Notes under the pieces: model-generated | The model's database searches: none | What the model was told of the DNA's origin: nothing | What the model saw: the letters and a program-made list of their open reading frames with translations, nothing else | Source: an uncultured Acidimicrobiales bacterium | GTDB taxonomy: Bacteria; Actinomycetota; Geothermincolia; Fen-727; Anoxymicrobiaceae | Direction: 5' to 3' | DNA length: 64,000 nucleotides | NCBI GenBank assembly: GCA_964512645.1 | Contig: CAZEJS010000001.1 | Span: forward strand, 64,825-128,824 | Position numbers and translations under genes: made by a program | Shown here: one piece after another, positions 1,265 to 38,998 of the stretch | Numbering within the stretch: position 1 is the first letter of the stretch | How the letters are laid out: every line of letters starts with the position of its first letter

Positions 1265-2554
1265 ATGAGCGTTGATGTCATTGTCGTCGGTGGGGGCTGG
1301 GGCGGCCTCACCGCCGGAGCGATGCTGGCGCGGAACGGCCTGGAGGTCCGCCTGCTGGAGGCCAGCGGTCATCTCGGGGGGCGCGCGTCCTGCGAGCGCA
1401 AAGACGGCTTTATCGTCGACTACGGCATACACGCCATCAGCCACGGGTCGGCCGGGGCCGCGGCCAGGGCGCTCTGCCTGGTCGGGCACGAGATCGAGTT
1501 CCTGCACTACGGCAAGCCGCTCCTGTACCGGGAGGGCGGGTTCGCGCCGCTGCCGACAGGCGCCTACTCCATCTTGAGCTCCCGCCATCTCTCGCCGGCG
1601 GACAAGCTGACAATCGCTCGCGGCTTCGGGCGCCTGCTCCTGTCGAACACCGAAAAGACGGCCGACGTCCCGATCGTGGAATCGGTACCGGGAGCCGACA
1701 GGGAGACGGTGAGGGATTTCTACAGCGTCCTGTCCGGGATAGGGTTGATCGCCCCCGACATCGAGGTGGCGAGCTCGGGCGAATTCGCCAGATTCCTCAA
1801 ACGCGCCCTGAAGGCCCGGCACCAGGTCGCCTACCCCCGGGGAGGCTCCGCCCAGATAAACGAGGCCCTGGCGGCAAGGGTGGAGAGCTCCGGCGGCGTC
1901 TCAACCAACAGCCGGGTGAAACGCCTGGAGATCGAGGGCGGCCTGGTACGGTCTTTGAAAGTGCTCGAAGAAGACCTGTCCGCCCGCGCTTACGTCCTTG
2001 CCGTCCCGGTGCAGAAGATACCGGACCTGGTGGGCGACGCCCTGGACGGCGAGTTCAAGAGGAGCTGCTCTTCGATAATCCCCACCGCCGGGCTGTCGCT
2101 CGACCTGTGCCTGTCGCGCCCGGTGTCCGACATCGACAGCGTCATCATAACCGCGAACCCCGTTACCATGGGCCAGTTCACGTCCAACATCGACGAGAGC
2201 ACCGCCCCCGCCGGGAAGCAACTGGCGACGTTCTTCTACCCTCTGCCCGTCTCGCTCCTCGAGGACAGGGTGCGGCTGGAGGAGGAGAGCAAGCGGTTCG
2301 TCGCCCTCGTCGAGGAGATGTTCCCGGGGATACTGGACCGGGTCGAATGGGAGCGCACCCTCAAGCTCAAGATGATCGACGGGTTCGAACCGCGGGTGGG
2401 GCAGACGCCGCGGGACCGCCCCGGCACCAGGGTCGAAGGCGCGGAGAACCTGTTCCTCGCCGGAGACTGCGTGGGCGTCGAAGGCCAGGGCGGTGACGTC
2501 GCCTTCACCTCCGGGGTGCGGGCGGCCGAGGCGGTGCTGGAGTACCTCGGATGA
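1265..2554 (+). CDS. FAD/NAD(P)-dependent oxidoreductase (CrtI/amine-oxidase-like fold)
   Basis: Rossmann dinucleotide motif VIVVGGGWGGLTAGAMLA..LLEASGHLGGRA at the N-terminus. RBS AGGGAGG 5 nt upstream of ATG 1265; the ORF-track start at 1238 was rejected. Confidence 0.7.
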   Translation: MSVDVIVVGGGWGGLTAGAMLARNGLEVRLLEASGHLGGRASCERKDGFIVDYGIHAISHGSAGAAARALCLVGHEIEFLHYGKPLLYREGGFAPLPTGAYSILSSRHLSPADKLTIARGFGRLLLSNTEKTADVPIVESVPGADRETVRDFYSVLSGIGLIAPDIEVASSGEFARFLKRALKARHQVAYPRGGSAQINEALAARVESSGGVSTNSRVKRLEIEGGLVRSLKVLEEDLSARAYVLAVPVQKIPDLVGDALDGEFKRSCSSIIPTAGLSLDLCLSRPVSDIDSVIITANPVTMGQFTSNIDESTAPAGKQLATFFYPLPVSLLEDRVRLEEESKRFVALVEEMFPGILDRVEWERTLKLKMIDGFEPRVGQTPRDRPGTRVEGAENLFLAGDCVGVEGQGGDVAFTSGVRAAEAVLEYLG

Positions 2555-3324
2555 ACGCGGCGCCGCGGGAAGCGCCCGAGGAGCTGCAGCTAACCGGAGA
2601 ACGTACTCTGCCCGGCATCGCCCGGGAGAACTACTGGTTCATGCGCCACGTAGCCGCGTACGAGCACGTGCTGCCGCTCGCCGACGGAAAGAGGGTGGTA
2701 GACATAGGCTGCGGTGAGGGGTACGGGCCGTCGATCCTGTCGGAGCGCGCCGCGAGCGTGCTCGGGGTGGACATCGCACCGGAGGTCGTCGAACACGCCA
2801 GGAGCCGTCACGGCTCGGAGACGGTGACCTTCGAGGTGATGGACGTGAACGACCTGGACCTGGACGATGGCTCTTTCGACCTCGCCGTGTCTTTCCAGGT
2901 CGCCGAGCACCTCGCCGACGAGGCCGGCTACTTCTCGGAAATAGCCCGGGTCCTGGCCCCCGGGGGGACCGCCGTGCTCACGACCCCCAACCGGCTCACG
3001 ATCTCCCCGGGGTCGGAGACGCCCATCAACCCGTTCCACCTGCGGGAGTACACCCCCGACGAGTTCCGCGCCGCGCTCGAGGAGCACTTCGGAAAGGTCC
3101 GCCTCTCGGGGTTGTTCCACGCCGGCTGGCTGGCCGTCAACGAGCGGGTCAGGGCCGTCGACTTCATCAAGTTCTACGAGATGGGACCCGCCAACCCTAG
3201 GTACTGGACGCACCGGCTCCTTACCCCCCTGGTGCGCTCCCGTGATTTCCGCATTCGCGGGGGAGACCTCGGCGGGTGCCTGGACGTCGTGGCCGAGTGC
3301 TCCTCGCCCCTCGGAGGTGCTTGA
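2551..3324 (+). CDS. Class I SAM-dependent methyltransferase
   Basis: SAM motif I VVDIGCGEGYG, acidic motif II, motif post-I LAPGG. ATGA overlap with the upstream gene stop, and its stop overlaps the downstream TTG start (cTTGAc). Confidence 0.75.
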   Translation: MNAAPREAPEELQLTGERTLPGIARENYWFMRHVAAYEHVLPLADGKRVVDIGCGEGYGPSILSERAASVLGVDIAPEVVEHARSRHGSETVTFEVMDVNDLDLDDGSFDLAVSFQVAEHLADEAGYFSEIARVLAPGGTAVLTTPNRLTISPGSETPINPFHLREYTPDEFRAALEEHFGKVRLSGLFHAGWLAVNERVRAVDFIKFYEMGPANPRYWTHRLLTPLVRSRDFRIRGGDLGGCLDVVAECSSPLGGA

Positions 3325-4907
3325 CCCTGCCCGGACAGTTCTCGTTCGTGCTCCATACCCACATGCCGTACGTGCGCAGGAACGGCGCCTGGCCCGTCGG
3401 AGAAGACTGGCTGTACCAGGCGATGAGCGAGACGTACCTGCCGCTGCTGGGCATGCTAGCCGAGCTCGACCACGAGGACCTCGGACCTTGCCTCGCGCTC
3501 ACCCTGACCCCGGTTCTCTGCGAGCAGCTCGCCGACCGCTACATCCAGGACCGTTTCGTCTCCTACCTGAAGACCATGGCCGAGCGCGCCCGCGGAGACG
3601 CCAGGGACTTCCGGTACTTCAGCGACACCCCCAGGGGCGACCTGGCGAAAGATTACGAGGAGGATTTCAAGCGCAAGCTCCTGGCTTACACCTCGATCGG
3701 CGGAGACATACTCGGCGCGATCGCCTCCTTCGAGGAGGCCGGCCTCGTCGAGACGCTGGGCTCCTGCGCGACGCACGCCTTCCTGCCCGGCCTCGGTGAT
3801 GAAAAGCGCGTCCGCGAGCAGGTGCGCCTGGGCGTCGAGTCGCACGTGGTTCACATTGGAAAAAGGCCCAAGGGTTTCTGGGTACCGGAGTGCGCCTACC
3901 GGACGGGCCTGGAGGAAATCCTCGCCGAAGAGGGCGTGGAGTACTTCATCGTCGACTCCACGGCGCTCGGCGGACTGGCGCCCGGGCGCCCGTACACGGT
4001 GGGCTCCTCCCCGGTCGTCGCGCTCGCGCGAAGCGACAGGGCGCACGGCAACGTATGGGACGAGGACGCCGGGTACCCCACCGACGGCAGCTACCTCGAC
4101 TCCACCAAGTACTACCACGGCTCCGGGCTGCACTACTGGCGCGTCACCGGGAGAGAAGTGGACATAGAGGCCAAGGAAGTGTACGTGCCCGCGGACGCCA
4201 GCAGGCGGGCGCTCGACCACGCCGAGCACTTCATCGGCGACGTGGCGGCGGAGCTGGACGAAGCCGCATCGGCGCCCGGCGGCGGGTTCGACGCCGACCC
4301 CCCCCTGGTTGTCGCCTGCTACGACACCGAGTTTTTCGGACACGGCTGGAAAGAAGGGTTCTACTGGCTGGAGATCGCCCTCCGGTCCCTCTCCGGCTTC
4401 AGTTCGATGCAACTGACCGTCCCCTCCGAATTCCTTGCCCGGTTCGCCGAACGGGCACCCGTCGAGCTGGCGGAGACGAGCTGGGGCACCGGCAGGGACC
4501 ACTCGACGTGGTTGAACGAAGAGACCCGCTGGATGTGGGAGGCCGTGGGCGCTTCCGCCTCCAGGCTTTCAGGGCTTGCCCGCCGTTTCGAGCCCGCCGG
4601 GACCGGGCCCCTGGAGGCCCGCGCGCTGGTGCAGGCCGCGCGCGAGGTGCTGCTGCTGGAGTCCAGCGACTGGCCGTACATGGTTGCAAAAGACCGGGCC
4701 GCGGACTATGCTAGTGAGCGGTTTCGCCGCCACCTCGAGCGGTTCGAATCGCTCTGTGGAGCGCTGGAGGACCAGGAGGTGGAAGGCGCGGCCGATGACC
4801 TTGATGAGGTCGAGGAGGCGGACAACATCTTCGCCGGACTCGATCTCAGAACTGTCTTAGGAGACAAGGGCCCCGGGGGGCCTCGAAGGGAGACGGAATG
4901 CGGGTAG
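3321..4907 (+). CDS. GH57-family alpha-glucan branching enzyme-like protein
   Basis: N-terminal FSFVLHTHMPYV motif typical of GH57 (DUF1957) branching enzymes. Probable TTG start at 3321 overlapping the methyltransferase stop. Confidence 0.75.
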   Translation: MTLPGQFSFVLHTHMPYVRRNGAWPVGEDWLYQAMSETYLPLLGMLAELDHEDLGPCLALTLTPVLCEQLADRYIQDRFVSYLKTMAERARGDARDFRYFSDTPRGDLAKDYEEDFKRKLLAYTSIGGDILGAIASFEEAGLVETLGSCATHAFLPGLGDEKRVREQVRLGVESHVVHIGKRPKGFWVPECAYRTGLEEILAEEGVEYFIVDSTALGGLAPGRPYTVGSSPVVALARSDRAHGNVWDEDAGYPTDGSYLDSTKYYHGSGLHYWRVTGREVDIEAKEVYVPADASRRALDHAEHFIGDVAAELDEAASAPGGGFDADPPLVVACYDTEFFGHGWKEGFYWLEIALRSLSGFSSMQLTVPSEFLARFAERAPVELAETSWGTGRDHSTWLNEETRWMWEAVGASASRLSGLARRFEPAGTGPLEARALVQAAREVLLLESSDWPYMVAKDRAADYASERFRRHLERFESLCGALEDQEVEGAADDLDEVEEADNIFAGLDLRTVLGDKGPGGPRRETECG

Positions 4908-6136
4908 TTCTCCTGAGCTGGGAGTACCCGCCGCGCATCATCGGCGGACTGGGAAGGCACGTGTACCACCTGGCGACCTCGATGGCCGAGCAGGGGGTCG
5001 AGGTCCACGTGGTGACGAAGGACCACCCCGGCGCGCCGGACTACGAGGAGTCCGGCGGCGTCAAGATCCATCGCGTGGTCAATTACCCGCCGGACATCGC
5101 CCAAGAGGAATGGGTCCCCTGGACGCTCCAGTTCAACGTGGCGCTGCTGGAGAAGGCCGTGGCCCTCATCAACGAGCTCAAGAGGGTCAACGTCATCCAC
5201 GCCCACGACTGGCTGGTGGCTCACGCCGCTGCGAGCCTCAAGCACGCGTACCGCATACCCCTGGTTGCCACAATTCACGCTACCGAGTACGGCAGGCACC
5301 AGGGACACCTCCCCGGGCCGATGAACAAGCTCATACACCAGATTGAGTGGTGGCTGACCTTCGAGTCCTCGCGCACCATCTGCTGCAGCCAGTACATGAT
5401 GGAACAGATAACAGACATCTTCGAGCTGCCCCACGACAAGGTGGAGGTCATCCCCAACGGCATAGACCACGAGAGCTTCAAGCGCGACGTGAGCGTCGAC
5501 CTCTACAGGAAGAAGTACGTTCCCGCCGGAGACAAGCTGGTCTTCTTCGTGGGAAGGCTGGTGTACGAGAAGGGGGTGCAGACCGTTATCGAGGCGATGC
5601 CGTTGATACTCAAGCGCATCCCCAACGTGACCTTCGTCGTGGCGGGGAGCGGGCCGCACCTCAACGAACTCAAGTCGCTTGCCGGCGACTTCGGCCTGAG
5701 CGACAAGGTCAGGTTCACCGGCCACATGGACACCGACGGCCTGTGCGCCTTCTACAAGAGCGCCGACCTCACCGTGGTGCCGAGCCTCTACGAGCCGTTC
5801 GGCATGGTAGTCCTGGAGTCGATGGCCATGGGTACTCCCACTATAGTCGCCGACACCGGGGGACTCTCCGAGATCGTCGTCCACGAGGAGACCGGCCTGA
5901 AGTTCGAGCCGGGCAACCCGGACTCGCTCGCCGACGCGATGCTCAGGGTCCTGGAGGACGCGGGCCTTTCCAGGCGCATTACCGAGGACGCCACGGCCTA
6001 CATGGGCGAGACGTACAACTGGGACCGTATCGCCAGGCACACCCTCGACGTGTACCGCCGGGCGGAGCGCGGCTACGAGTACCGGCCCCGCACCCTGGCC
6101 CTCTGCCCGCCGCTGCCCGACGAGGCCGCCGGCTAG
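4898..6136 (+). CDS. GT4 family glycosyltransferase (alpha-1,4-glucosyltransferase-like)
   Basis: GT-B fold with N-terminal glycine-rich RIIGGLGRHV and C-terminal E-x7-E motif (EPFGMVVLESMAMGTP). Its start overlaps the GH57 stop by 10 nt. Confidence 0.8.
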   Translation: MRVVLLSWEYPPRIIGGLGRHVYHLATSMAEQGVEVHVVTKDHPGAPDYEESGGVKIHRVVNYPPDIAQEEWVPWTLQFNVALLEKAVALINELKRVNVIHAHDWLVAHAAASLKHAYRIPLVATIHATEYGRHQGHLPGPMNKLIHQIEWWLTFESSRTICCSQYMMEQITDIFELPHDKVEVIPNGIDHESFKRDVSVDLYRKKYVPAGDKLVFFVGRLVYEKGVQTVIEAMPLILKRIPNVTFVVAGSGPHLNELKSLAGDFGLSDKVRFTGHMDTDGLCAFYKSADLTVVPSLYEPFGMVVLESMAMGTPTIVADTGGLSEIVVHEETGLKFEPGNPDSLADAMLRVLEDAGLSRRITEDATAYMGETYNWDRIARHTLDVYRRAERGYEYRPRTLALCPPLPDEAAG

Positions 6137-6225
6137 CCCCGCGGAGCGCCAGCCCGAACCCATCCAACTTCCATGGCGGCGCCCCGGCGCATCCGGCCGG
6201 GCGAGAGCGCGCCCGGGTCCCGCCC

Positions 6226-7248
6226 TCAGAGGGCGCCCAGCCCCTCCTCTGTCCTTCCCGTGAGAAAGTCCGCGGCGTGCTCCGGGGTGGTGACGTTTAT
6301 CATCATCGAGGTCCCGAGCTCGAAACCCCCGGAGATGGTAAGCTTCGGGACCACCTCCAGGTGCCAGTGGTAGTAAGGGTACTCCGCGCCGTCGGTGGGA
6401 GCGGAGTGTATGTAGTAGTTGTACGGCGGGTTGGTGAACTTCCGATCGTAGGCGCCGAGCACCTCCCGCAGTAGGGCGCCGAACTCCTCCAGCTCACCCT
6501 CGGTGATGCGGCCGAAGGACTCGCGGTGCTCGCGGGGGAGTATCCACACCTCGAAGGGAAGCCTCGAGGCGAACGGCGCTATGGCGACGAACGCGCGGTT
6601 GCTCGCCACCACCCTGCGGGACGCCGCGGTCTCCTCGGCGACGATGCGGCAGAAGACGCACTCGTCGTGCCTGGAGTGGAACCAGGACGCCCCGGCGAGC
6701 TCCTGCTGCACCAGCGGCGGCACCAGGGGCATGCCGAAAAGCTGGGAATGGGAGTGCTCCAGCGAGGCGCCCGCCTCCCTGCCGTGGTTGACGATGATGT
6801 GCACGTAGCGGATATCCGGGTCCCCGGCGTTGGCGGCGTACCTGTGACGGTACACCCTCAGAACCAGCTCCACCTCTTCCGCCGGCATCGTTCCCAGGTG
6901 GAGAGAGTGCGACGGGCTGTGGATTATGACCTCGTGGGACCCCTCCGCCGCCCTGGCGGGAAAGAACTCCGCGGTGGGAGGCGGTTCCTCGGCGGCCTGG
7001 AACGCGGGGAACTTGTTGGGAACGACCCTGACCTGCCAGCCGGGGGCGTTCGGCTCTCCGTCGCCGGGCCTCACCGCGAGGACCTCGAGGGGCGTCATGA
7101 TCTCGTGGCCGGGGCAGAACGGGCAACTGTCGGACTCCTCCGGGGGTTCGACGGCGCACGGTGAGGAAAAACCGGTCGGCCGCATCGCCCTCTCGGTGGC
7201 GACGACGACCCAGAGCCCGGTCACGACGTCCTGCCTCAGCTCTCCCAA
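6226..7248 (-). CDS. galT: Galactose-1-phosphate uridylyltransferase-like (HIT superfamily, GalT family) nucleotidyltransferase
   Basis: Zn-site CPFCPGHE near the N-terminus and the HxHxQ active-site motif (EHSHSQLF). TTG start at 7248 preceded by GGGGAGGAG. Confidence 0.7.
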   Translation of the reverse strand: MGELRQDVVTGLWVVVATERAMRPTGFSSPCAVEPPEESDSCPFCPGHEIMTPLEVLAVRPGDGEPNAPGWQVRVVPNKFPAFQAAEEPPPTAEFFPARAAEGSHEVIIHSPSHSLHLGTMPAEEVELVLRVYRHRYAANAGDPDIRYVHIIVNHGREAGASLEHSHSQLFGMPLVPPLVQQELAGASWFHSRHDECVFCRIVAEETAASRRVVASNRAFVAIAPFASRLPFEVWILPREHRESFGRITEGELEEFGALLREVLGAYDRKFTNPPYNYYIHSAPTDGAEYPYYHWHLEVVPKLTISGGFELGTSMMINVTTPEHAADFLTGRTEEGLGAL

Positions 7249-7348
7249 CGGTCTCCTCCCCGGACGCGCGCGCCCCGCCCTGTCGGAATCGGGCGCGTTC
7301 CCCTCCGTGGGACTCCGCTTCCTCCCGGCACGCGCCGGCGCCCCGGCG

Positions 7349-8071
7349 TCACGGCCCGCTCCTCTCGGCGTACTCCCGCGCCGGCGGCCCGTAGATGTCG
7401 GGCGGGCCGGGCATGGCGTACGCCCCCTCGTCCCACTCCACGTCCACGGGGTTCCTCCGGTACTTGAGCACCTTCGCCGGCACTCCTCCCACCACGGCGT
7501 AAGGCGGCACGTCGCGCGCGACCAGGGACATCGCCCCTATCACGCTGCCCTCGCCGACGGTGACCCCCCTGAGGACGGTCGCCTTCTCGGCTATCCAGAC
7601 GTTGCGCTCGATTATCACGTGCTCCTTGCGGATGCCCTGGCTTCGTATCGTCATGTGGGGGTCGATGAACCAGTGGTCGAAATCGACGACGTAGATGTGA
7701 TCGGCCCAGAGCGCCTCCTCCCCGACCTCCACGTGGTTGTAGCAGTTGATGGTGTTCTTGCCGCCAAACGTGGACTTGCGCCCTATCCTCAGCGTCCCCT
7801 CGTGGGCCCTGAACGCGCACCCCTCGCCTATCCAGACGAACCCGCCTATGGTGAAGCTGGCGTTCCTGCCCTTGCTTATCTCGTACCGCTTCGGCAGAAA
7901 GACGAACCCCTCGGTCTTAATGCCGGGGCGGAGGAGCTTGAACTTCAGGAACCGGTACAGCGAGCGCCAGTAGTTCCAGGTGTACATCCTGTTGCGGATT
8001 ATGAAACGGAGGTTACGGACCAGCCAGGTGCCGCCCCCCGAAGGCTGGAGCTCGGCGGGGAGGGCGGGCAT
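7349..8071 (-). CDS. Hexapeptide-repeat (left-handed beta-helix) acyl/acetyltransferase
   Basis: Repeated [LIV]-G-x-x-[STAV]-x-[LIV] hexads (VWIGEGCAF, LRIGRKSTF, VWIAEKATVLRGVTVGEGSVIGAMSLV). Start chosen at ATG 8071 (RBS GAGGAA, spacing 7) rather than GTG 8116. Confidence 0.7.
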   Translation of the reverse strand: MPALPAELQPSGGGTWLVRNLRFIIRNRMYTWNYWRSLYRFLKFKLLRPGIKTEGFVFLPKRYEISKGRNASFTIGGFVWIGEGCAFRAHEGTLRIGRKSTFGGKNTINCYNHVEVGEEALWADHIYVVDFDHWFIDPHMTIRSQGIRKEHVIIERNVWIAEKATVLRGVTVGEGSVIGAMSLVARDVPPYAVVGGVPAKVLKYRRNPVDVEWDEGAYAMPGPPDIYGPPAREYAERSGP

Positions 8072-8126
8072 GCCCCGTTCCTCGTCACCTGTCACGACCT
8101 CGGCCTCCAATCGCACCCCCGGAGCG

Positions 8127-9047
8127 TCAGCTCGCCTTGCGGGCGAAGAGAAGCATGTTGTAGAAGACCGAAGCGGGGAGGTACGGGTAAATCCTCTCGT
8201 CGAGCCTGCTCAGCTTGAGGTAGGTCGAATACGACCAGTACCGCCAGCGGAAAGTAATGTTCTCCTCGACGAGGTTGTTCTCGATGGTGCGCGTCATCCA
8301 CCCGACGAAGCTGGAGAGGAACTCCTCTCCCTCGACCCGCGCCTCGGCGAAGCCGGCGTCCAGCGCCTGGCGGCGCACCGCCGCGGGCCAGAAAGTGTGG
8401 ACGTCCACGACCTTCTCGAACTCCCGGATCTCCCTGTCGGCGGCCTCCCTGTCCACCTGCGGGCGCATCCTCGCCCGGACACCTCCGAAATAGCCCCCCA
8501 GGCGGGTGTAGACCTTGAGGGCCGCGGTGGTGCCGCCGCGGGCCGCCTGTCCCATGAGGTCGCCGACCCGGGTCGGCTCCCCCGCCAGCAGGCAGACTCC
8601 CCCGGGCTTCAGAATCCTGTGCATCTCGGAAAGCGCCGCGGGGACGTCGGGGATGTGGTGGAGTATCGCGTGCCCGACCACCATGTCGAACTCCTCGTCG
8701 GCATAATCGAGCCGCTCGAGCTCGGACTGCCGGGCGTGAACCTTGAGGCCCAGCCCGGCGGCGTTATCGAGACAGGCGTCCACCATGCCGCGGCTGATGT
8801 CGCAGGCGTGGAGCTCTTCGATGAGCCCGGGCTCGGACAGGCACAGGTTGAGGCCCACGTACCCGGTTCCACAGCCCACCTCGAGCAGCCGGTCCACCCT
8901 GGGGAACGGCCCGCCCAGCGCCTTTTCGAACTTGTGCCGGACGCGCAGCGCGTTGTCGTGGTCGTACTGTATCCCCCACTTGCTGTCGTAGCTCTCGCTC
9001 TCGACGTCGTGGAACAGCTCGTTGGCTTTTCTGAGGTCGACTTCCAT
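8127..9047 (-). CDS. Class I SAM-dependent methyltransferase
   Basis: Motif I LLEVGCGTGYVG, motif II EFDMVVG, post-I ILKPGG. Confidence 0.75.
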   Translation of the reverse strand: MEVDLRKANELFHDVESESYDSKWGIQYDHDNALRVRHKFEKALGGPFPRVDRLLEVGCGTGYVGLNLCLSEPGLIEELHACDISRGMVDACLDNAAGLGLKVHARQSELERLDYADEEFDMVVGHAILHHIPDVPAALSEMHRILKPGGVCLLAGEPTRVGDLMGQAARGGTTAALKVYTRLGGYFGGVRARMRPQVDREAADREIREFEKVVDVHTFWPAAVRRQALDAGFAEARVEGEEFLSSFVGWMTRTIENNLVEENITFRWRYWSYSTYLKLSRLDERIYPYLPASVFYNMLLFARKAS

Positions 9048-9206
9048 AGGCGCAATAATAACAGAACGGCCCCCGGCCGCGCTCTCTCGCCGCTACGGGC
9101 TCCGGCCTGCGGCCCTGTGACGCCGCGAGCCTTTCCCCGGCACGCACGAAAGATTCGCGCCGGGCCGCGGGCGCCCGGCGCGATTTCTATCCGGCGGGAG
9201 CGTCGT

Positions 9207-10507: not shown

Positions 10508-11305
10508 CTACTTTCCGATGAACTCGGCCTGCCCCGGGCCCTTCTCGATGAAGGTCCGCATGCCGATCTTCTGGTCCTCGGTGGAGAAGCAGAGGGCGAT
10601 GCCCTGCGCCTCGATCACCAGGCCGTCGGATATCGAGCAGTTCAGGCCCCGGTTGATCGCGTCCTTGGCCATCGCCAGCGCGAACGGCGGGTACTTGCGG
10701 GCGTAGCGCCCGGCGACCTTCTGCGCCTCCGCGACCACCGCGGCGCCGTCGCCCTCCACGAACCTGTCCACCACCCCGTACTCCAGGCACGTCTTCGTGT
10801 CGTAGAACCTTCCGGAGAAGATCATCTCCTTGGCCCTGGCAGGCCCGATCAGCCTGGAGAGCCGCTGGGTCCCGCCGGCCCCGGGGATGATGCCCAGCAG
10901 TATTTCCGGCACCCCGATCTGCGCCGTCTCCCCGGCGAACCGCCAGTCACAGGCCAGCGCGAGCTCGCACCCGCCCCCGAGCGCGAACCCGTTGATCGCC
11001 GCTATCACCGGCTTGGGCACGTTTGCCAGCGCGGTAAGCGCGTCCTGCGCCCCGCCGATGATCTTGGTGACCAGCATCGGCGTCGCTTCGGCCATCTCCT
11101 TGATGTCCGCGCCTGCGGCGAACACCTTCTCTCCGCCGGTCACGACCACCGCCCGGACGGCGTCGTCGTACTGCAGCTCCCTTGCGCACATGCCGATCTC
11201 GATGAAGAGCTGGCTGTTGAGGGCGTTGAGCTTGGGGCGGTCGAGCCGCACCGTCGCGACGTACTCCTCAACCTCGACCTTCAAGAACTCGAAATCGTAT
11301 GCCAT
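10508..11305 (-). CDS. Enoyl-CoA hydratase/isomerase (crotonase family)
   Basis: Crotonase oxyanion-hole motifs FAAGADIKEM and INGFALGGGCELALACD. Start at ATG 11305 (RBS GGAGGTG, spacing 6). Confidence 0.8.
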   Translation of the reverse strand: MAYDFEFLKVEVEEYVATVRLDRPKLNALNSQLFIEIGMCARELQYDDAVRAVVVTGGEKVFAAGADIKEMAEATPMLVTKIIGGAQDALTALANVPKPVIAAINGFALGGGCELALACDWRFAGETAQIGVPEILLGIIPGAGGTQRLSRLIGPARAKEMIFSGRFYDTKTCLEYGVVDRFVEGDGAAVVAEAQKVAGRYARKYPPFALAMAKDAINRGLNCSISDGLVIEAQGIALCFSTEDQKIGMRTFIEKGPGQAEFIGK

Positions 11306-11480
11306 CCACAACACCTCCACTTCGGTCTCCCGTCGGGTCGGTCCCGCGGGCGATAAGGCGAACAGCCACGAGCAGCGGTAATTCTATCACGAACGTGCAA
11401 AGGCAGCGGGTGTCCGTCGCGAACGTTTCCGGGGGCGTTCGCGGCGGCGGGCGGAGGCGCCGCGGACCGGCGGGCGGGGC

Positions 11481-11873
11481 TCAGAGCGTCCGTATGTAAT
11501 CGACAATATCCGAGGTCGGGGTGCCCGGTGTGAAGAGCATGGACACGCCTTTCTCCAGCAGCCGGGCGATGTCCTCCTCGGGGATTATCCCGCCGCCTAC
11601 CACCGCGATATCGTCGGCGCCCTTCTCCTTCAACATCTCCACAACCCGGGGGAACACCGTCATGTGGGCCCCGGAAAGCACCGATAGCCCCACCACGTCC
11701 ACGTCCTCGTCAATCGCCGCCCTGACGATCTGGTCCGGCGTCTGGTGCAGGCCCAGGTAGATGACCTCCATCCCCGCGTCCCGGAGCGCGCGGGCGACAA
11801 CCTTGGCCCCGCGATCGTGCCCGTCAAGCCCCGGCTTGGCTATGAGCACCCTGTGTGTCTTCTCGCTCAACTC
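11481..11873 (-). CDS. Cobalamin (B12)-binding domain protein; small subunit of a split acyl-CoA mutase
   Basis: B12-binding DxHxxG motif in [32 protein letters not shown]. Probable TTG start at 11873 (GGGGGAG, spacing ~6), 43 nt downstream of the large-subunit stop. Confidence 0.75.
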
Positions 11874-11916
11874 CGCTCCCCCGGCCCGGTGCGGTTCGGC
11901 GCCCCGGGCTGCTTCA

Positions 11917-13575
<1,659 letters not shown>

Positions 13576-13577
13576 CT

Positions 13578-14099
13578 TCAGTACTCTATCCCTTCGCGCA
13601 GCGGCACGCCCCTGTCGTAGCAGTGCCTCACGTTCTTCATCTCGGTGATGAGGTCGGCGCGCTCGTAGAACTCGTCCGGCGCGTACCGGCCGGTGAGCAC
13701 CAGCTCCACCGTGGGGGGCTTCGAGTCGATGACCGGGAGGACCTCGTCGAGCGTCAGCACCCCCAGCTCGACGGCCACGCTTATCTCGTCCATTATCACG
13801 ATGTCGTACTCGCCGCCGGTCAGGGCCCGGCGCGCCTCCTCCAGGCCCTCGCGGGCAAGCCTGACGTCCTCGGCGGACGGCTCCCCCTTCTTGACGAAGG
13901 TGTCGAGGCCGGCCTGTGTGAGCACGAAGTCGCCGCCCAGCCTGGGCGCGGCGACCAGCTCCCCGTACTCGCGGCCCTTGAGGAACTGGACCATGCAAAC
14001 CCGCAGGCCTTTCCCGACCGCCCTCATCGCCAGGCCCAGCGCGGCGGTGGTCTTCCCCTTGCCGTCCCCGGTATAGACCTGGATGAGCCCCTGTTCCAT
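13578..14099 (-). CDS. cobO: Cob(I)yrinic acid a,c-diamide / cob(I)alamin adenosyltransferase (CobO/CobA/BtuR family)
   Basis: P-loop [23 protein letters not shown] and family-typical length (~173 aa). ATG 14099 preceded by GGAGGG. Its stop abuts the mutase large-subunit start (2-nt gap). Confidence 0.8.
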
Positions 14100-14503
14100 C
14101 TCTTTCGACCCTCCCTCACCGGCGCCGGGAGACGCAACCGCACCCCCCGCCATCAAGACCGGGAAAAGTATATCAAAACCGGTATTTCTCATATCAAACC
14201 CGCTCTTCCGCGCATAATCGGAAACCCGGTTCCCTGGAATCGCTCGAGCCCGCTGTGCGATGCGGAACGAAAGCGTTTTCCGGCCACGAGGAGATGAAAA
14301 CCGGCGGACGAGCGGAGACGCGGCTATTCGAACGTCCTTGCGTCCGGCCAGCAAGGGCTCGTTTTCATGGGGCGCGCGCCGGCGCCCGCGCACGAAGTGG
14401 CGGATACGGGACGTGTCTTGCATATATAATTGGCGAAGCGTGCGGCGGACAGACGGGGCACGGTCTCGCAAGAGGTGCGGCAATCGATGACACGCGGCGA
14501 AAC

Positions 14504-15589: not shown

Positions 15590-15878
15590 GGTCCCGCGGC
15601 CGCACGCACATCCGCCAGTTCCGCCCAAGCCGGTAATCGCCGGCCTTCCGGCCCGCATGCCTCCGATCGCGCCTTCGGCATCCCGTGCCCCGGGCTGATG
15701 CCGTCAGGCGTCAAGGCGGGCGAAAAAATACCCCGGTGAAACGGGACGGGGCCCTCCTGCGTCGAATTATCATCAGACCCGCGGCGGCTCGGTGCCGCGG
15801 GCGGGAAGGGCTAACCCGCGGAATCGCGGCCACGGAGGCGATGTGAAGGCAGGGACACTGGCGGTGAGAGAGACGGTT

Positions 15879-16949
15879 ATGAGCCGCAGGCGGCTCAAGA
15901 AGACATACCTGTACCTGCGCAGGGCGAACAAGAAACGAGTCGTCCTGCTGCTCTCGGCGACTTTCCTGGCGGCGGTGCTGCTGGTGCTGTGGGGGTTTCT
16001 ACTGATACAGGACCTGGCGCTGTCCGACGAGGTCTTCCCCGGGGTGACCGTGAACGGCATGGCTGTGGGCACTATGGACCGTCAGCAGGTGGAGAGCCTG
16101 GTGAAGTCGAGCATCGTCACCGCGGTGCAGGAACCGATGGTCCTGACCCACGAGGACAGCGTCTACAAGCTGGACCTGGCGAAGATCGGCCTGTCCGTGG
16201 ACGTCGACAGGATGGTAGACGAGGCGTTCCGCAAGGGCTCCTCGATCAACATCGTGTCGAGGATGCTGAGGCGGTTCCTCGACAAACCCATCACCGGCGA
16301 CGTCCCGGTCATCCTCAAGTACGACCAGGCGCAGGTCAGAGCGTTCGTGGCGAACATCGCCGGCGACCTCGACTACGCCGCGCGAAACGCGTCGGTGGAC
16401 ATGTCAAAAGGGCACCCGGTGATAACCGGGTCGCGCAACGGCCGGAGCGTCAACCAGGAGGAACTGATCGGGCAGATCACCTCGCTCCTTCCCCAGGGGA
16501 AGCGCCGGCTGCAGATACCGGTCTCGGTGCTGAACCCGGCGGTCAGGGAGTCCGACATCGGGACGATAATTGTGCTGAAGCAGTCCGAACACAAGCTGTA
16601 CCAGTACAACGGCGGCAGGCTGGTGGACACCTACTCCTGTGCCGTGGGAACCCCCCAGTACCCCACTCCCAACGGGAAGTTCGAGATACTGGAGAAGAAG
16701 AAGGACCCCTGGTGGTACCCCCCCAAGTCGGACTGGGCCAAAGACAAGAAACCGGTGCCCCCCGGCCCGGGGAACCCCCTGGGACCGTACTGGATGGACC
16801 TGGGAAACGGTGTGGGCATCCACGCCACGCCGGACGAGGCCTCGCTCGGGTACTCGGCGTCTCACGGGTGCATCCGGCTCTCGGAGTGGAGCGCCCTGCA
16901 GGTCTTCAACGCCGTAGAGAAGGGCACCCCCGTCTACATTATCCCCTGA
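15879..16949 (+). CDS. L,D-transpeptidase (YkuD domain) with N-terminal membrane anchor
   Basis: C-terminal YkuD catalytic motif ..GIHATPDEASLGYSASHGCIRL. N-terminal TM segment LLLSATFLAAVLLVLWGFLLI. ATG 15879. Confidence 0.8.
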   Translation: MSRRRLKKTYLYLRRANKKRVVLLLSATFLAAVLLVLWGFLLIQDLALSDEVFPGVTVNGMAVGTMDRQQVESLVKSSIVTAVQEPMVLTHEDSVYKLDLAKIGLSVDVDRMVDEAFRKGSSINIVSRMLRRFLDKPITGDVPVILKYDQAQVRAFVANIAGDLDYAARNASVDMSKGHPVITGSRNGRSVNQEELIGQITSLLPQGKRRLQIPVSVLNPAVRESDIGTIIVLKQSEHKLYQYNGGRLVDTYSCAVGTPQYPTPNGKFEILEKKKDPWWYPPKSDWAKDKKPVPPGPGNPLGPYWMDLGNGVGIHATPDEASLGYSASHGCIRLSEWSALQVFNAVEKGTPVYIIP

Positions 16950-17044: not shown

Positions 17045-20000
17045 TCAGTCCGAGAACCCCCCGATGGTGTCGGTCCCGGCTCCCCGGTTGCCCCAGTACA
17101 TGGCGCGCTCGACCATTATCTTCTTCGAGGGGTCCTTGCTGCGCACCATCACCGACGCCCGGGAGTCCGAGAGCCTGTCCGCCATGTTGTAGCTCTTGCG
17201 GGAGTTCCCCGGGATGGTGTCGGAGAACACCACGTTGCCCTTGCCGGTGGGGGTCATGTAAGAGATCTCCACCTGCACGTCGGCCTTCCCGGGGTTCTGA
17301 ACGAGCGTCCAGGTCTCACGGCCGCCTGACGTCTGCCCGTCGGGCAGGTAGAAGGCGGTGTGGGGCGCGGCCAGCCCGATCGAGTCGTGGCAGGCCTCTC
17401 CCGCGGGGGAGTTCCAGTACATGGCGCGTTCGGCGATTATCGGCTTGGTGCCGTGCACCACCGTGGAGACGTCGGTGTTGGGGGGGAGCTGGTCGTTCAC
17501 CCTAACGGTCCTGCGGGAGTTGGGCTCCATGGTGAAGGAGGGGCCCGGGACCTCCCCGGAGGGGGTCTGGTAGGTGATGTTCACCCCGTTGGCGCTGTTA
17601 TGCGGGTTCTGGACGAGCACGTAGGTTATGTAGCCGGAGTCGTATCCGGTGGCACCTTCCGCCAGGTAGTAGGTGGAAGCCGGGGTGGTGGTGCCGATCG
17701 AGTCGTGGCCCTCCCGGCGGTCGTTGCGGTACATCGCTCGCTCGGGGATGACCTCCTGGTCGCTCTCCACCTTGATGGAGGCGTCCGCCTGGCCGATGTC
17801 CTGCGCCATGGAGAAGCTGGCCCGGGAGCGGGCGGGCACCTTGTGTTCGATGGTTTCCGGTCCCCTGCCCTCTATCATGTAGGTGACCTTGCAGGAGGCA
17901 TCCTTGCCTTGCGGGTTCTGGATGAGCAGCCAGGTCTCGAAGTTCCAGTTGGTGGAGCCCTCGGGGAGGTACCAGGTCTTTGCGGGAGAGGTCACCCCAA
18001 TGGAGGAGTGGCCTTCTTCTCCCGCTCCAGAGTTCCAGGTCATGGTCCTGTCGACGGCTATGGAATTTCCCTCGGTGCAGACGACCTTCGTGGAGAAGTC
18101 CTTGCTTCCCAGCTTCTCCGCGGGGTTGACGGTCGCCTGGCTGAGGGCCGGCAGGGTTACCGTACCCCCGGGGACGTCCCCCTCGGAGGTGTTGTAGGTT
18201 ATCTGGGCATGGACCGTCGCCGGGTTGGGGTTCTGGATCGACACCTGCGTGGAGAAGCCCCAGGCGGTGGTGCCCTCTGCGAGGTACCAGGTGTCACCGC
18301 CACCGAGGGTGCGGAGGGCGTCTATGCGCCCCCACCCGTAATGGTCGTCCCTTCCTTTGGCGCCGAGGTCCTTAGCGCTCTTCTGCATCCGCGACTGGAC
18401 CTGCGCAGGCGTCCACGCTGGGTACTTCGACCTCACCAGGGCCCCGAGCCCCGATGCCATGGGGCAGGCCATCGAGGTCCCGCTGAGATAGTCGTATTTC
18501 TGCTGGTAGCCCCAGGAGTTCAGCGAGCACGGGTACATCGGCAATGTCGAGTAGATCTTCCAGCCCGGCGCGGAGAGGTCCACGTCGGAGTTGTACGTGG
18601 AGAAGGCGGTGTACTTGTCCCGGTTGTCGGTGGCGCCGACGCCGATCACGTTGTCGTATCCCGCCGGGTAATTCTTTGTCGAATCCCCGGAGTTGCCGGC
18701 GGAAGCGAACACCACCGCCCCGCGCGTGTTGTGCGCATGGTTGACGGCGGCCTGCCCGGCCGCCGAGGAACCGGGGCCCCCCAGGCTCATCGAGAGGACC
18801 TGCGCGCCATGGTCGGCCGCCCATCTTACCCCGGAGTAGATGTCGTCGTACGTCCCCGACCCGTCAGATGCCAGCACCTTCACCGGCATGACCCTGGCGC
18901 CGAAGGAGACCCCGACGCCCCCCTTGTTGTTCCCCTGCACCGCCGCGGCAATCCCCGCGCAGTGGGTGCCGTGCCCCTGGTCGTCGTGCGCTGAGGCGTT
19001 GGCGTTGGTCTTGAAGAAGAGGTCGTAGGGGGCGTAGTCTACCCACGTGCTTGAGCTGTTCTGGGCGTACATGTCACCCTCGCGGTACTCGTCGACGTTG
19101 CCGGGGTAATCGCCGGCGGGGTTGAACACGATCCAGTAGTGATCGCTGGCGCTCGGCGTCTGCTGGTAGAGAACGATGTAGTACTTGACCCCTTTCGCCA
19201 GCTTCACCGGGGTGGAGAAGTTCTTGTAGATGTAAGTGACGCCGCTGGACGCTATCTCGGCGGGGTTCACCGTGTATGAGGCCAGGTTGGTCCCGGAGAG
19301 GGAGGAACGCAGGGCCACGGTGATCGTGGTCGGGCTCCCCGTCTTGTAGAACTCGAAACCGGCGGCGGTGAGGTTCTGGCCGGTCCCGGTTACAGACTGG
19401 GCGATCCTGGGCCAGGCTGTGGAACCCAAATGGGCGATTCTTTGGTAATAACCTCCATCATAGTAGTAGTCCATCAACTGGCTTATCCCCGCGAAGTTGT
19501 ACCCGGGGACGAACTTCGAGGAGAGGTCCGGGTGGTCCAGGTCGCCCCCGGTATCGATGACCGCCACGGTCACGGGGGTGGTGCCGCCGGTCTCCACGTT
19601 CCAGGCTCCCTCGGCGTTGATGTCGGCGCCGGGGGTGCCCTCCTGCCCCTTGATGACCTGCCCGGTGTTGTTCAAGCCCCACTGCCTGGGATAATCCGGG
19701 TCTTTCGGCCGGTAAGTGGCGCGCGCGATGTAGTTGGGCTCGGCATAGAGCACGTCGGGGTTGGAGCTGAGGGAGGCCACCGCCCCCTCCACCGAGACGT
19801 CCGGCCCGAGCTGGAGGAGCTGGGCGCCCGCGTCGTCACGCACTACCGCCAGGGCGCCTGCCGCCCGGCGCGCGTTGTTCTTTGAGGCTTCGCCCGCGCC
19901 CGGCTTGAAGCTGACGATCACCTGGTTTTTCATGCGGTCCGGCCTGCTGTTGCCCAAAGGGATCGCTTTCGTACACTGGGAGTACCGTTCCGCCGGCCCG

Positions 20001-20080
20001 GCGGCGTAAGCGCCGGCCACCGGCACCAGCATCGCGGAAACCAGCAGGATCGCGGCAAGGAAAACAAGACACCTGCGCAT
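17045..20080 (-). CDS. Secreted S8 (subtilisin-like) serine peptidase with four C-terminal ~110-aa repeats
   Basis: Catalytic triad motifs DTGGDLDHPDL, HGTHCAGIAAA and GTSMACPMASG. Signal peptide MAMRRCLVFLAAILLVSAMLVPVAGAYA. Start ATG ~20080 (GGAGG, spacing 8). The C-terminal 450 aa form 4 tandem repeats. Confidence 0.85.
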   Translation of the reverse strand: MRRCLVFLAAILLVSAMLVPVAGAYAAGPAERYSQCTKAIPLGNSRPDRMKNQVIVSFKPGAGEASKNNARRAAGALAVVRDDAGAQLLQLGPDVSVEGAVASLSSNPDVLYAEPNYIARATYRPKDPDYPRQWGLNNTGQVIKGQEGTPGADINAEGAWNVETGGTTPVTVAVIDTGGDLDHPDLSSKFVPGYNFAGISQLMDYYYDGGYYQRIAHLGSTAWPRIAQSVTGTGQNLTAAGFEFYKTGSPTTITVALRSSLSGTNLASYTVNPAEIASSGVTYIYKNFSTPVKLAKGVKYYIVLYQQTPSASDHYWIVFNPAGDYPGNVDEYREGDMYAQNSSSTWVDYAPYDLFFKTNANASAHDDQGHGTHCAGIAAAVQGNNKGGVGVSFGARVMPVKVLASDGSGTYDDIYSGVRWAADHGAQVLSMSLGGPGSSAAGQAAVNHAHNTRGAVVFASAGNSGDSTKNYPAGYDNVIGVGATDNRDKYTAFSTYNSDVDLSAPGWKIYSTLPMYPCSLNSWGYQQKYDYLSGTSMACPMASGLGALVRSKYPAWTPAQVQSRMQKSAKDLGAKGRDDHYGWGRIDALRTLGGGDTWYLAEGTTAWGFSTQVSIQNPNPATVHAQITYNTSEGDVPGGTVTLPALSQATVNPAEKLGSKDFSTKVVCTEGNSIAVDRTMTWNSGAGEEGHSSIGVTSPAKTWYLPEGSTNWNFETWLLIQNPQGKDASCKVTYMIEGRGPETIEHKVPARSRASFSMAQDIGQADASIKVESDQEVIPERAMYRNDRREGHDSIGTTTPASTYYLAEGATGYDSGYITYVLVQNPHNSANGVNITYQTPSGEVPGPSFTMEPNSRRTVRVNDQLPPNTDVSTVVHGTKPIIAERAMYWNSPAGEACHDSIGLAAPHTAFYLPDGQTSGGRETWTLVQNPGKADVQVEISYMTPTGKGNVVFSDTIPGNSRKSYNMADRLSDSRASVMVRSKDPSKKIMVERAMYWGNRGAGTDTIGGFSD

Positions 20081-20304
20081 CGCCATCGCCTCCAGGTTCA
20101 TCACAGGGCGGCCGGCGCCGCCCCTTTTCGAACCTGGGCTTCCAAGCGGCACCCGCCCCGGCCCGGTGCCATTCCAGAAACCCGGACTCGAACTCGCTCA
20201 TCCCCGGCTGTTGCGCAAACATTTTACCACCGGAGTTGGAGGGCCCGTCAATAACTTACGCGCCGCTTCCGAAACTGGTCGTTCCCGCGCGACTCGCCCA
20301 GGGC

Positions 20305-32226: not shown

Positions 32227-33909
<1,683 letters not shown>

Positions 33910-33944
33910 TTCGCCCTCCCCGGCCCGCGGTCCCCCGGACCGCT

Positions 33945-34718: not shown

Positions 34719-34745
34719 CGTTCTCTCCTCCTGTGTCGTGCCCCG

Positions 34746-36281: not shown

Positions 36282-36294
36282 GCGACCGCCCTCC

Positions 36295-37497: not shown

Positions 37498-37498
37498 G

Positions 37499-38833: not shown

Positions 38834-38998
38834 GCATCCTCCTTTCCGCCAACGTACCGTGGAAAGCTCGCGGGTTGTGGCACCGGCATGGATCCAGGAT
38901 GCGCGTGCCACCCGCGGGTCCTCCGGTCCGCCCCGCTCCACCTCGTTCAAACCCGTCCGCAGTGCTACCGCGCCCCACGGGGGTGCGGTGTCCGCGTT

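Follow-up and report, generated by a model that had tools for sequence, protein, structure and literature searches.

The stretch of DNA analysed here, 64,000 nucleotides in length and referred to as the window, comes from the metagenome-assembled genome of an uncultured anaerobic actinobacterium of the Geothermincolia type. Between positions 2551 and 9047 it holds six genes on two converging strands. On the plus strand, MT1, a class I SAM-dependent methyltransferase of the Rv3030 family (2551-3324; Methyltransf_11/25), is followed by a GH57 branching-enzyme-type transglycosylase, the Rv3031 counterpart (3321-4907, within an open reading frame of 3276-4907; Glyco_hydro_57 and BE_C), and by a retaining GT4 glucosyltransferase, the Rv3032 counterpart (4898-6136; Glyco_transf_4 and Glycos_transf_1). 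The minus strand carries MT2, another class I SAM-dependent methyltransferase, of the Rv3038c family (8127-9047; Methyltransf_11/25); LbH, a left-handed beta-helix (hexapeptide) acyltransferase and Rv3034c counterpart (7349-8116; Pfam Hexapep); and, as the last gene of this unit, a GalT-like HIT nucleotidyltransferase of the ADP-glucose phosphorylase type (6226-7248; N- and C-terminal GalP_UDP_transf domains, and HIT). This set, with its overlapping first two junctions, had been recognized in the sequence-only reading, and its genes and domains, as well as the overlaps of four bases between MT1 and GH57 (TTGA) and ten bases between GH57 and GT4, were all recovered. However, the operon begins one gene earlier than had been claimed, with a FAD-dependent oxidoreductase of the amine-oxidase/phytoene-desaturase fold (1265-2554, plus strand; Pfam Amino_oxidase and NAD_binding_8), which overlaps MT1 by four bases (ATGA, 2551-2554). 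MT1, GH57 and GT4 are translationally coupled, the FAD oxidoreductase gene included. Transmembrane segments are absent from all cluster proteins, which fits the expectation for a cytoplasmic pathway, and no RNA genes were found when the window was scanned for tRNAs and against Rfam.

The arrangement had been proposed to mirror the locus for methylglucose lipopolysaccharide (MGLP), a storage-like glucan with methyl and acyl groups, of Mycobacterium tuberculosis; the published limits of that locus are Rv3030 and Rv3037c (PMC2674218). Within that cluster, Rv3030, as the genetically implicated 6-O-methyltransferase of MGLP, and Rv3032 have been tied to its 6-O-methylation and elongation, respectively (PMC4555173; PMC2674218); Rv3032 takes UDP- and ADP-glucose and appears to be restricted to MGLP (PMC4981310). 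The functions of Rv3031, Rv3034c and Rv3038c are putative, even in mycobacteria. To obtain a reference, a sequence of Rv3032 was found to match at 100% a database protein (P0121) annotated as 'transferase [Mycobacterium tuberculosis]', and the contig of this protein (L001) was compared with the window by tblastn in both directions. Five window proteins were reciprocally matched in the Rv3030-Rv3039c region, with 36-45% identity and E values from 1e-42 to 4e-78, namely, MT1 with Rv3030 (45%, 3e-47), GH57 with Rv3031 (36%, 3e-75), GT4 with Rv3032 (36%, 4e-78), LbH with Rv3034c (43%, 1e-42), and MT2, over its full length, with Rv3038c (36%, 1e-56). The proposed gene order is borne out by the first four of these pairs, and the comparison with the Rv303x proteins, which had been set beforehand as the test that could refute the hypothesis, left it standing, with methyltransferase and acyltransferase synteny kept beyond the lineage. 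The Rv3030, Rv3034c, Rv3037c and Rv3038c families are not covered by NCBIfam models, and Rv3032 itself does not reach the TIGR02149 cut-off.

The two loci have in common the same-strand succession of an Rv3030-type methyltransferase, an Rv3031-type GH57 enzyme and an Rv3032-type GT4 enzyme, with an Rv3034c-type hexapeptide acyltransferase downstream in convergent orientation, as well as an echA17-type enoyl-CoA hydratase after the second methyltransferase. They differ in that the window lacks homologues of Rv3032A, Rv3033, Rv3035, Rv3036c and Rv3037c; in that its genes are packed more tightly, with overlapping junctions; in the two conserved genes that it adds, those for the HIT enzyme and the FAD oxidoreductase; and in the host, which, as the earlier reading had allowed for, is neither a Mycobacterium nor a Nocardia. 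The mycobacterial methylmannose polysaccharide (MMP) cluster (ManT, methyltransferases and MmpH), whose product is also a cytoplasmic polymethylated polysaccharide, likewise places a GT4-type alpha-1,4 polymerase beside SAM methyltransferases (PMC9883506). However, MMP is built from mannose, its cluster has the hydrolase MmpH instead of a GH57 enzyme and no acyltransferase, and no window protein was matched to it.

The two methyltransferases deserve separate consideration. MT1, located immediately upstream of the GH57 gene as in the MGLP cluster, shares with Rv3030, beyond the SAM-binding fold, two family motifs (LTGERTxP..ENYWFxRH and TTPNR..SPG..PxNPFHxRE). MT2 had been equated with Rv3037c, an assignment that we reject: its counterpart is Rv3038c, found in M. 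tuberculosis between Rv3037c and echA17 (Rv3039c), with gene numbers verified by counting from fixA/fixB to serB2, and thus beyond the published limits of the cluster (PMC2674218). Rv3037c is a THUMP-like-domain protein without a tblastn match anywhere in the 64-kb window, and it is absent from 82 of the 85 loci described below (homologues in 3/85, against 56/85 for Rv3038c). The inclusion of Rv3037c in the published cluster may itself be a mis-assignment. The MT2 family is narrow, with 64 representatives at E<=1e-30 among 1.84 billion. Its M. tuberculosis member, Rv3038c, is functionally unassigned, predicted to be essential, and required for oleic-acid tolerance (PMC13279779). Solved structures are available for neither methyltransferase family, and both match only generic class I methyltransferases.

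The GH57 gene starts at a TTG codon (3321) preceded by GGAGG, and encodes 528 residues, the same length as a 99%-identical database protein (P0001). The enzyme carries PF03065 and PF09210 (BE_C), the domains by which GH57 glycogen branching enzymes are recognized, and its catalytic motifs WVPECAY and YDTEFFGH are intact, with the catalytic Glu and Asp present; both domain structure and motifs are shared with the branching enzymes of Thermus, Thermococcus and Petrotoga (PMC6629080). Scores against the NCBIfam branching-enzyme models are below the equivalog cut-offs (377 against 1000 and 358 against 920 bits), while branching enzymes in the PDB (5WU7, 3N8T and 1UFA) are matched at E values of 1e-80 to 3e-94. 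Indeed, 5WU7 and 3N8T score 312-320 bits, against 250 bits for Rv3031. GH57 similarity on its own was therefore discarded as evidence for MGLP, since the match to ordinary branching enzymes is at least equal and other GH57 loci lack the partner genes; its position between the methyltransferase and GT4 genes is nonetheless that of Rv3031. GT4 aligns full length with Rv3032 at the protein level (P0121; 36% identity, E 2e-83) and is much closer to it, at 249 bits, than to the solved structures of MshA and GlgM, at 131 and 91 bits, respectively. Both proteins have the N-terminal motif SWEYPPxxIGGLGRHV and the E-x7-E motif, the catalytic residues being intact, and GT4 is predicted to be an Rv3032-type alpha-1,4-glucosyltransferase.

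The GalT-family HIT nucleotidyltransferase noted earlier between the two halves of the locus does belong to the HIT/GalT branch and lies where it was placed, but it is closer to ADP-glucose phosphorylase than to classical GalT. Its best solved relative is Arabidopsis At5g18200 (1Z84/2H39; E 1e-64, against 2e-21 for E. coli GalT). It is also slightly above the cut-off of TIGR00209 galT_1 (103.6 against 102.1), so that ADP-glucose and UDP-hexose are both candidate substrates. Similarity to At5g18200 extends over the full length and includes the CPFC zinc site and the HSHSQ nucleotidyl-histidine motif of the active site, which align. At5g18200 phosphorolyses ADP-glucose and has no known physiological role in the plant (PMC11066809); in contrast, the gene described here shares a transcription unit with glucan-modifying enzymes. 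As had been expected, the mycobacterial locus contains no such gene, since no match was found in 20 kb of L001, and its occurrence in Geothermincolia-like loci only marks it as a lineage-specific addition.

The same applies to the FAD oxidoreductase, which is missing from the M. tuberculosis locus and whose homologues, all upstream of MT1, were confined to Geothermincolia-like loci (L003-L011 and L014-L016). Its start at 1265 agrees with that of a 100%-identical protein of 429 residues (P0263), and its AlphaFold2 model, with a pLDDT of 92, retrieved with Foldseek the uncharacterized archaeal oxidoreductases 3KA7 and 3NRN as best matches, then protoporphyrinogen oxidase and phytoene desaturase. 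The start codon of LbH is uncertain, as neither the protein starting at 8116, read as in the window reference or with Met first, nor that starting at 8071 was matched in the protein collection.

Upstream of MT2, a GC-rich hairpin with a T-rich tail, recognized by pattern match (9155-9183, minus strand; 11-bp stem with ten G-C pairs), lies between the stop of an acyl-CoA dehydrogenase gene (9207) and the start of MT2 (9047). This element is probably an intrinsic terminator, which would set the MT2-LbH-GalT-like unit apart from the acyl-CoA genes that precede it. Farther upstream, an enoyl-CoA hydratase (10508-11320, minus strand), 40% identical to Rv3039c, is a conserved neighbour: echA17 follows Rv3038c in M. 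tuberculosis, and such a gene also comes after MT2 in L022 (Frankiaceae), L053 and L078 (Williamsia). MGLP carries isobutyrate esters, but a B12 mutase gene of this region was rejected as an isobutyryl-CoA mutase, because NCBIfam puts it nearer methylmalonyl-CoA mutase; the type of this mutase and the strong hairpin before MT2 are the reasons for which the acyl-CoA and mutase genes were left out of the system. A Pfam survey of the 64-kb window revealed no other glycogen genes, and none of the domains of GpgS (Rv1208), GpgP (Rv2419c) and OctT (Rv2418c), the products of the MGLP initiation genes, which lie elsewhere in the mycobacterial genome. A putative GpgS sequence used as query had no match in the window, nor in any of the loci L001-L085.

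To place the locus in a broader context, 185,579 species genomes were scanned for the Rv3030-type methyltransferase using the family-specific MT1 motifs, which revealed at least 594 loci with confirmed relatives. The best 80 of these are all from Actinomycetota, and most also have GH57, GT4, LbH and MT2. In a set of 85 loci picked solely on MT1 or Rv3032 similarity, homologues of Rv3031, Rv3038c, Rv3034c and Rv3032 were found in 76, 56, 53 and 49, respectively. The gene order and strands of the window recur in relatives with as little as 53-66% identity in GH57, and the cluster core recurs in four classes of the phylum, so that the arrangement cannot be attributed to chance. MT2, LbH and the GalT-like gene are likewise contiguous or overlapping in relatives: no gap separates the last two in L003, and they have one base in common in L004, whereas 95 bases precede the GalT-like gene in a JGI contig (that of P0004). 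In Thermoleophilia the order is rearranged, with MT2 divergent from MT1, yet the genes stay together, which argues for functional linkage; among the 39 loci of this class with full flanks, LbH accompanies MT1 in 38 and MT2 is present in 32, and LbH is also co-located with MT1 in three of three Geothermincolia-like loci. The Amycolatopsis loci, which have neither LbH nor MT2 within 10 kb, count against the MGLP reading favoured below. Control loci from other lineages, three in number and with a GH57 of equal or higher similarity, lack all partners, that is, the Rv3030-type methyltransferase, the LbH-family acyltransferase and the Rv3038c-type methyltransferase; one of them (L088) has glucan-related genes, namely TreT-like transferases and a GlgC-like gene, and the other two (L086 and L087) have unrelated neighbours.

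Taken together, we favour, as the likelier though by no means certain reading, that the cluster is the Geothermincolia version of the mycobacterial MGLP set, whose product would be an oligo- or polysaccharide of the alpha-(1->4)-glucan type, soluble and located in the cytoplasm, that carries O-methyl groups and short acyl esters. The enzymatic specificities and the nature of the product are inferred from homology. GT4 would extend the alpha-1,4-glucan from ADP- or UDP-glucose, and GH57 would introduce one or more alpha-1,6 linkages by transglycosylation. MT1 would O-methylate the chain, at position 6 if mycobacteria are a guide, MT2 may provide a second kind of methyl group, and LbH would transfer short acyl groups from their CoA esters to glucose units. 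The GalT-like HIT enzyme is predicted to interconvert ADP-glucose plus phosphate and glucose-1-phosphate plus ADP by means of a histidine-AMP intermediate, and could thereby replenish or deplete the sugar-nucleotide donor used by GT4. We note that identities are only 36-45%, that GH57 is at least as similar to glycogen branching enzymes, and that initiation genes are absent from the window, all of which count against an MGLP reading.

It could be argued that GT4 as synthase, GH57 as branching enzyme and the ADP-glucose-phosphorylase-type enzyme form an ordinary locus for a glycogen-like storage glucan, next to methyltransferases and an acyltransferase that act elsewhere. That characterized branching enzymes of archaea and Thermus score as high with GH57 as Rv3031 does would be expected under such a scenario, as would the occurrence in other lineages of GH57 among glucan and sugar-nucleotide genes without a methyltransferase (L088). 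We nevertheless regard it as improbable. The stop of MT1 overlaps the start of GH57, MT1 neighbours an Rv3031-type GH57 gene in 76 of the 85 loci across four classes, and LbH and MT2 remain with the set even after the gene order is reshuffled, repeated chance adjacency being implausible for a family as narrow as that of MT2. Moreover, Rv3032 makes no measurable contribution to glycogen in M. tuberculosis (PMC4981310).

Another scenario, rather unlikely in our view, is that the product is a methylated and/or acylated glucoside other than a lipid-binding polymethylated polysaccharide, such as a decorated short oligosaccharide, a compatible-solute derivative, or a glycan on a lipid or isoprenoid that is handled by the FAD oxidoreductase. 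The fold of the latter is that of enzymes acting on hydrophobic substrates, phytoene desaturase and protoporphyrinogen oxidase among them, its gene overlaps MT1 by four bases, the sequence does not fix the length of the chain, its methylation pattern or its primer, and no GpgS-type primer gene was seen. However, all five core enzymes pair with proteins of the MGLP region and none with those of another known pathway, GH57 and GT4 together point to alpha-1,4/1,6-glucan chemistry, and membrane segments are absent from the cluster proteins.

The conservation of the MGLP cluster core in the deep-branching Geothermincolia suggests an early origin of these glucans, as a trait of Actinomycetota at large. 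According to the literature, MGLP has been chemically isolated from mycobacteria and Nocardia only (PMC2674218), and the locus had been put forward as a possible extension beyond them; the host does lie outside both, but the extension is not special to this window, since the core is phylum-wide. A fuller scenario, which we advance tentatively and with considerable reservation, is that MGLP-type methylated and acylated alpha-glucans are ancestral to Actinomycetota, predate mycolic acids, and occur in Thermoleophilia as well as in the anaerobic Geothermincolia; that their five-gene core includes the Rv3038c family rather than Rv3037c, with Rv3038c as the missing second MGLP methyltransferase; and that in Geothermincolia the pathway is fed by the ADP-glucose phosphorylase-type enzyme, which would make ADP-glucose from glucose-1-phosphate and ADP without ATP cost. 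The role in fatty acid metabolism proposed for MGLP (PMC4555173) may not apply to an anaerobe of this kind.

The genetic core of MGLP is much older and wider than mycobacteria and Nocardia, reaching from Geothermincolia through Thermoleophilia to Actinomycetes, such that the function of these glucans becomes a question for all Actinomycetota. The GalT-like gene, in turn, supplies a bacterial genomic context for an ADP-glucose-phosphorylase-type enzyme whose role is obscure even in plants. For mycobacteriologists, the phylum-wide comparison provides a concrete candidate, as patterns of co-occurrence point to the Rv3038c-family methyltransferase, which stays with the cluster, rather than to the Rv3037c proposed in the literature, as the better candidate for the missing mycobacterial methyltransferase.

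The gene and domain survey of positions 1265-9047, in a window of about 67% G+C, resolved seven genes in two convergent units. The forward-strand unit is headed by a FAD oxidoreductase (1265-2554; the start at 1265 agrees with the 100%-identical database protein P0263), followed by a class I SAM methyltransferase (MT1; 2551-3324), a GH57 enzyme with a branching-enzyme C-terminal domain (3321-4907) and a GT4 glycosyltransferase (4898-6136). The TTG start of the GH57 gene at 3321 gives a protein of 528 amino acids, as long as P0001, its 99%-identical counterpart in the database. Consecutive genes overlap by 4 (ATGA), 4 (TTGA) and 10 bases, respectively, with a GGAGG eight bases 5' of the TTGA overlap at the MT1/GH57 junction, and these overlapping junctions suggest that the four genes are translationally coupled. 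On the reverse strand, the order of transcription is a second methyltransferase (MT2; 9047-8127), a hexapeptide acyltransferase (LbH; 8116-7349, with an uncertain start) and a GalT-like HIT enzyme (7248-6226), and a strong hairpin (9155-9183) lies between MT2 and the acyl-CoA dehydrogenase gene upstream. No membrane segments were predicted in any of the cluster proteins, and the whole 64 kb (1-64000) contained neither tRNA genes nor Rfam families at gathering score. The sequence-only reading had coordinates, domains, strands and overlaps right, and its one omission was the oxidoreductase at the operon's head.

The GH57 protein as query retrieved close relatives only, and the M. tuberculosis locus was reached using an Rv3032 sequence as probe, which was 100% identical to P0121, 'transferase [Mycobacterium tuberculosis]'. 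From the contig of P0121 we took 20 kb, from trmU to serB2 (L001), fixed its gene numbers by counting from fixB/fixA (Rv3028c/Rv3029c) to serB2 (Rv3042c), and paired its genes with those of the window by tblastn in both directions, plus BLASTP. MT1 paired with Rv3030 (45% identity, E 3e-47), GH57 with Rv3031 (36%, 3e-75), GT4 with Rv3032 (36%, 4e-78) and LbH with Rv3034c (43%, 1e-42). These reciprocal tblastn matches, at 36-45% identity, agree with what had been proposed from sequence for the four genes, namely, a locus resembling that for methylglucose lipopolysaccharide (MGLP). The same proposal took the second methyltransferase to be Rv3037c, which has no homologue in the window; MT2 instead matches Rv3038c over its full length (36%, 1e-56), and the enoyl-CoA hydratase at 10508-11320 matches echA17/Rv3039c (40%, 2e-45). 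The window locus and the M. tuberculosis MGLP cluster have five core genes in common, whereas Rv3033, Rv3035, Rv3036c and Rv3037c are without counterpart in the former, which has two integrated extra genes. Homologues of these two, the FAD oxidoreductase and the GalT-like enzyme, are absent from the 20-kb M. tuberculosis locus, in the latter case as the earlier reading had it.

The replacement of Rv3037c by Rv3038c as the counterpart of MT2 has implications for mycobacteria. Rv3037c (14571-15647 of L001) bears a THUMP-like domain (PF18096), a kind of domain typical of RNA-modifying methyltransferases, and it is not conserved with the cluster: over 85 loci, homologues were counted at 76 for Rv3031, 56 for Rv3038c, 53 for Rv3034c and 49 for Rv3032, but at only 3 for Rv3037c. 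Moreover, the MT2 family is narrow, with 64 representatives at E<=1e-30 among 1.84 billion, so its recurrent presence at these loci is not background. In the literature, Rv3037c is named as the second MGLP methyltransferase (PMC2674218), and no open-access paper found here to mention Rv3038c connects that gene with MGLP. [quoted passage not shown]

Conservation of the cluster was evident at several distances. In relatives whose GH57 proteins are 53-66% identical, the same genes occur in the same order and orientation, namely, FAD oxidoreductase, MT1, GH57 and GT4, and then, on the opposite strand, GalT-like, LbH, MT2, acyl-CoA dehydrogenase and enoyl-CoA hydratase; MT2, LbH and GalT-like genes abut or overlap, except that in one relative the GalT-like gene is preceded by a gap of 95 bases. 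Family-specific motifs outside the SAM-binding fold, taken from an alignment of MT1 homologues and Rv3030, were scanned against one genome per species (185,579 species), yielding at least 600 stretches, at least 594 of them confirmed relatives. The best 80 of these at least 594 belong without exception to Actinomycetota: Geothermincolia (Solincola, Geohydrothermomicrobium), Thermoleophilia (many Solirubrobacterales), Nitriliruptoria, and Actinomycetes (Frankiaceae, Amycolatopsis, Williamsia, Mycobacterium). In the Thermoleophilia loci flanked by 6 kb or more on each side, GH57 was present in 35 of 39, LbH in 38 and MT2 in 32, with MT2 divergent from MT1 rather than downstream, such that the gene set is kept together despite its altered order. 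As a control, three GH57 homologues of other lineages scored 266-334 bits against the window GH57, compared with 250 bits for Rv3031, and none of the three had cluster partners beside it; one lay in a cluster of the kind typical for glucan and sugar-nucleotide genes. Finally, trmU precedes the cluster by a few kb in Geothermincolia-like loci (L003, 821-1879; L004, 2923-3969) as well as in M. tuberculosis (L001, 142-1245), which suggests an old chromosomal neighbourhood and vertical descent; in Actinomycetes, fixA/fixB lie alongside trmU.

Smaller differences were seen among Geothermincolia-like loci. An ORF of 175-195 amino acids without Pfam domain separates the GT4 gene from the GalT-like gene in L003 (13825-14352, reverse strand), where an IS200/IS605-type Y1 transposase (12934-13764) is inserted beside it, and in the JGI contig of the database protein P0004 (12829-13416, reverse strand), and is missing from the window and L004. 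In the more distant L005 (8187-8744) and L011 (8945-9502), the FAD oxidoreductase and MT1 genes are set apart by the insertion of an isochorismatase-family gene.

Both extra genes are lineage-specific among the loci compared. The GalT-like gene is limited to Geothermincolia-like loci, and its product, with intact CPFC zinc site and HSHSQ motif, scores just above the cut-off of the generic galT_1 model. It resembles At5g18200 of Arabidopsis (1Z84; E 1e-64) far more than it does the GalT of E. coli (E 2e-21). Since At5g18200 phosphorolyses ADP-glucose, its physiological role being unknown (PMC11066809), and Rv3032 is reported to accept ADP-glucose and UDP-glucose (PMC4981310), it is reasonable to infer that the GalT-like enzyme may feed or drain the ADP-glucose pool. 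A FAD oxidoreductase homologue is found 5' of MT1 in the Geothermincolia-like L003-L011 and L014-L016, and in no other lineage. The oxidoreductase of the window is modelled with confidence (pLDDT 92) in a phytoene-desaturase/protoporphyrinogen-oxidase/amine-oxidase fold, the nearest solved neighbours of the model being uncharacterised archaeal proteins.

What this locus makes can be approached from mycobacterial genetics, which assigns the elongation of MGLP to Rv3032 and its 6-O-methylation to Rv3030 (PMC4555173), Rv3031 and Rv3034c having been assigned by context alone (PMC4555173; PMC6629080). Rv3032 is apparently dedicated to MGLP and not to glycogen (PMC4981310). Together with homology, the intact catalytic motifs, translational coupling and conserved clustering make a methylated, acylated alpha-1,4-glucan the most likely product; we thus consider it probable, from sequence, that the window encodes a cytoplasmic alpha-1,4-glucan with short acyl esters and O-methyl groups added by two methyltransferases. 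That the locus would simply serve a storage glucan, with unrelated neighbours, is quite improbable given that stop and start codons overlap and that the genes lie together across the phylum. A different decorated glucoside is also unlikely, yet it draws on the fact that sequence reveals neither the length of the chain nor its primer nor where it is methylated, and that a provisional GpgS query found no GpgS-type gene in the window or in L001-L085.

The surroundings of this putative methylated glucan locus are rich in acyl-CoA genes. Positions 11481-14100 (reverse strand), which precede the genes for enoyl-CoA hydratase and acyl-CoA dehydrogenase in the direction of transcription, encode a split B12-dependent acyl-CoA mutase (B12-binding and large subunits), nearest to methylmalonyl-CoA mutase, plus a corrinoid adenosyltransferase. 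In relatives, too, this block comes after the cluster. A tie to acyl donor supply is conceivable because MGLP bears succinate, propionate and isobutyrate esters, but the hairpin parts this block from MT2. A second split mutase (32227-40975, reverse strand; large subunit 32227-34392, B12-binding subunit 39961-40398) is accompanied by a MeaB GTPase and a TetR regulator, and genes for FAD_binding_4 and CCG-domain proteins of glycolate or lactate oxidase type are interspersed among them. A protein of the ADP-forming acyl-CoA synthetase type (CoA_binding_2 plus Succ_CoA_lig; 21130-22518, reverse strand) lies 15 kb from the cluster, and a protein with these domains directly follows the GT4 gene in the Solincola-like L011 (14017-15426, forward strand). 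An LmeA-like phospholipid-binding protein (54261-54998, forward strand), LmeA being known from mycobacterial lipomannan synthesis, and an MptA/B-family gene upstream of the cluster in relatives hint that this deep lineage may have glycolipid machinery resembling that of mycobacteria. An L,D-transpeptidase (15792-16949) adjoins an S8 subtilase (17045-20152) of 1035 amino acids, whose prodomain is fervidolysin-like and which ends in a DUF5719 tail.

Among homologues with a named source, the nearest come from MAGs and are annotated as Candidatus Geothermincolia (70%) and Candidatus Anoxymicrobiaceae (about 64%), the latter a family that NCBI taxonomy places in Geothermincolales, class Geothermincolia, phylum Actinomycetota. 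The host is hence of Geothermincolia type and outside Mycobacterium and Nocardia, the placement on which the earlier reading had made its wider claim depend. The GT4 protein is identical in assembly GCA_029555785.1 and two other metagenomes. Acyl-CoA metabolism, iron-sulfur and B12 enzymes abound in the remainder of the window, whose gene content fits an anaerobe.

In the open-access papers found, MGLP is described for mycobacteria and Nocardia only (PMC2674218), although a wider distribution may already have been reported. Biologically, the locus extends a known pathway and is no surprise in kind. Nevertheless, the comparison yields a testable candidate for a missing mycobacterial enzyme, and the Geothermincolia locus would place the pathway's origin at the base of the Actinomycetota.
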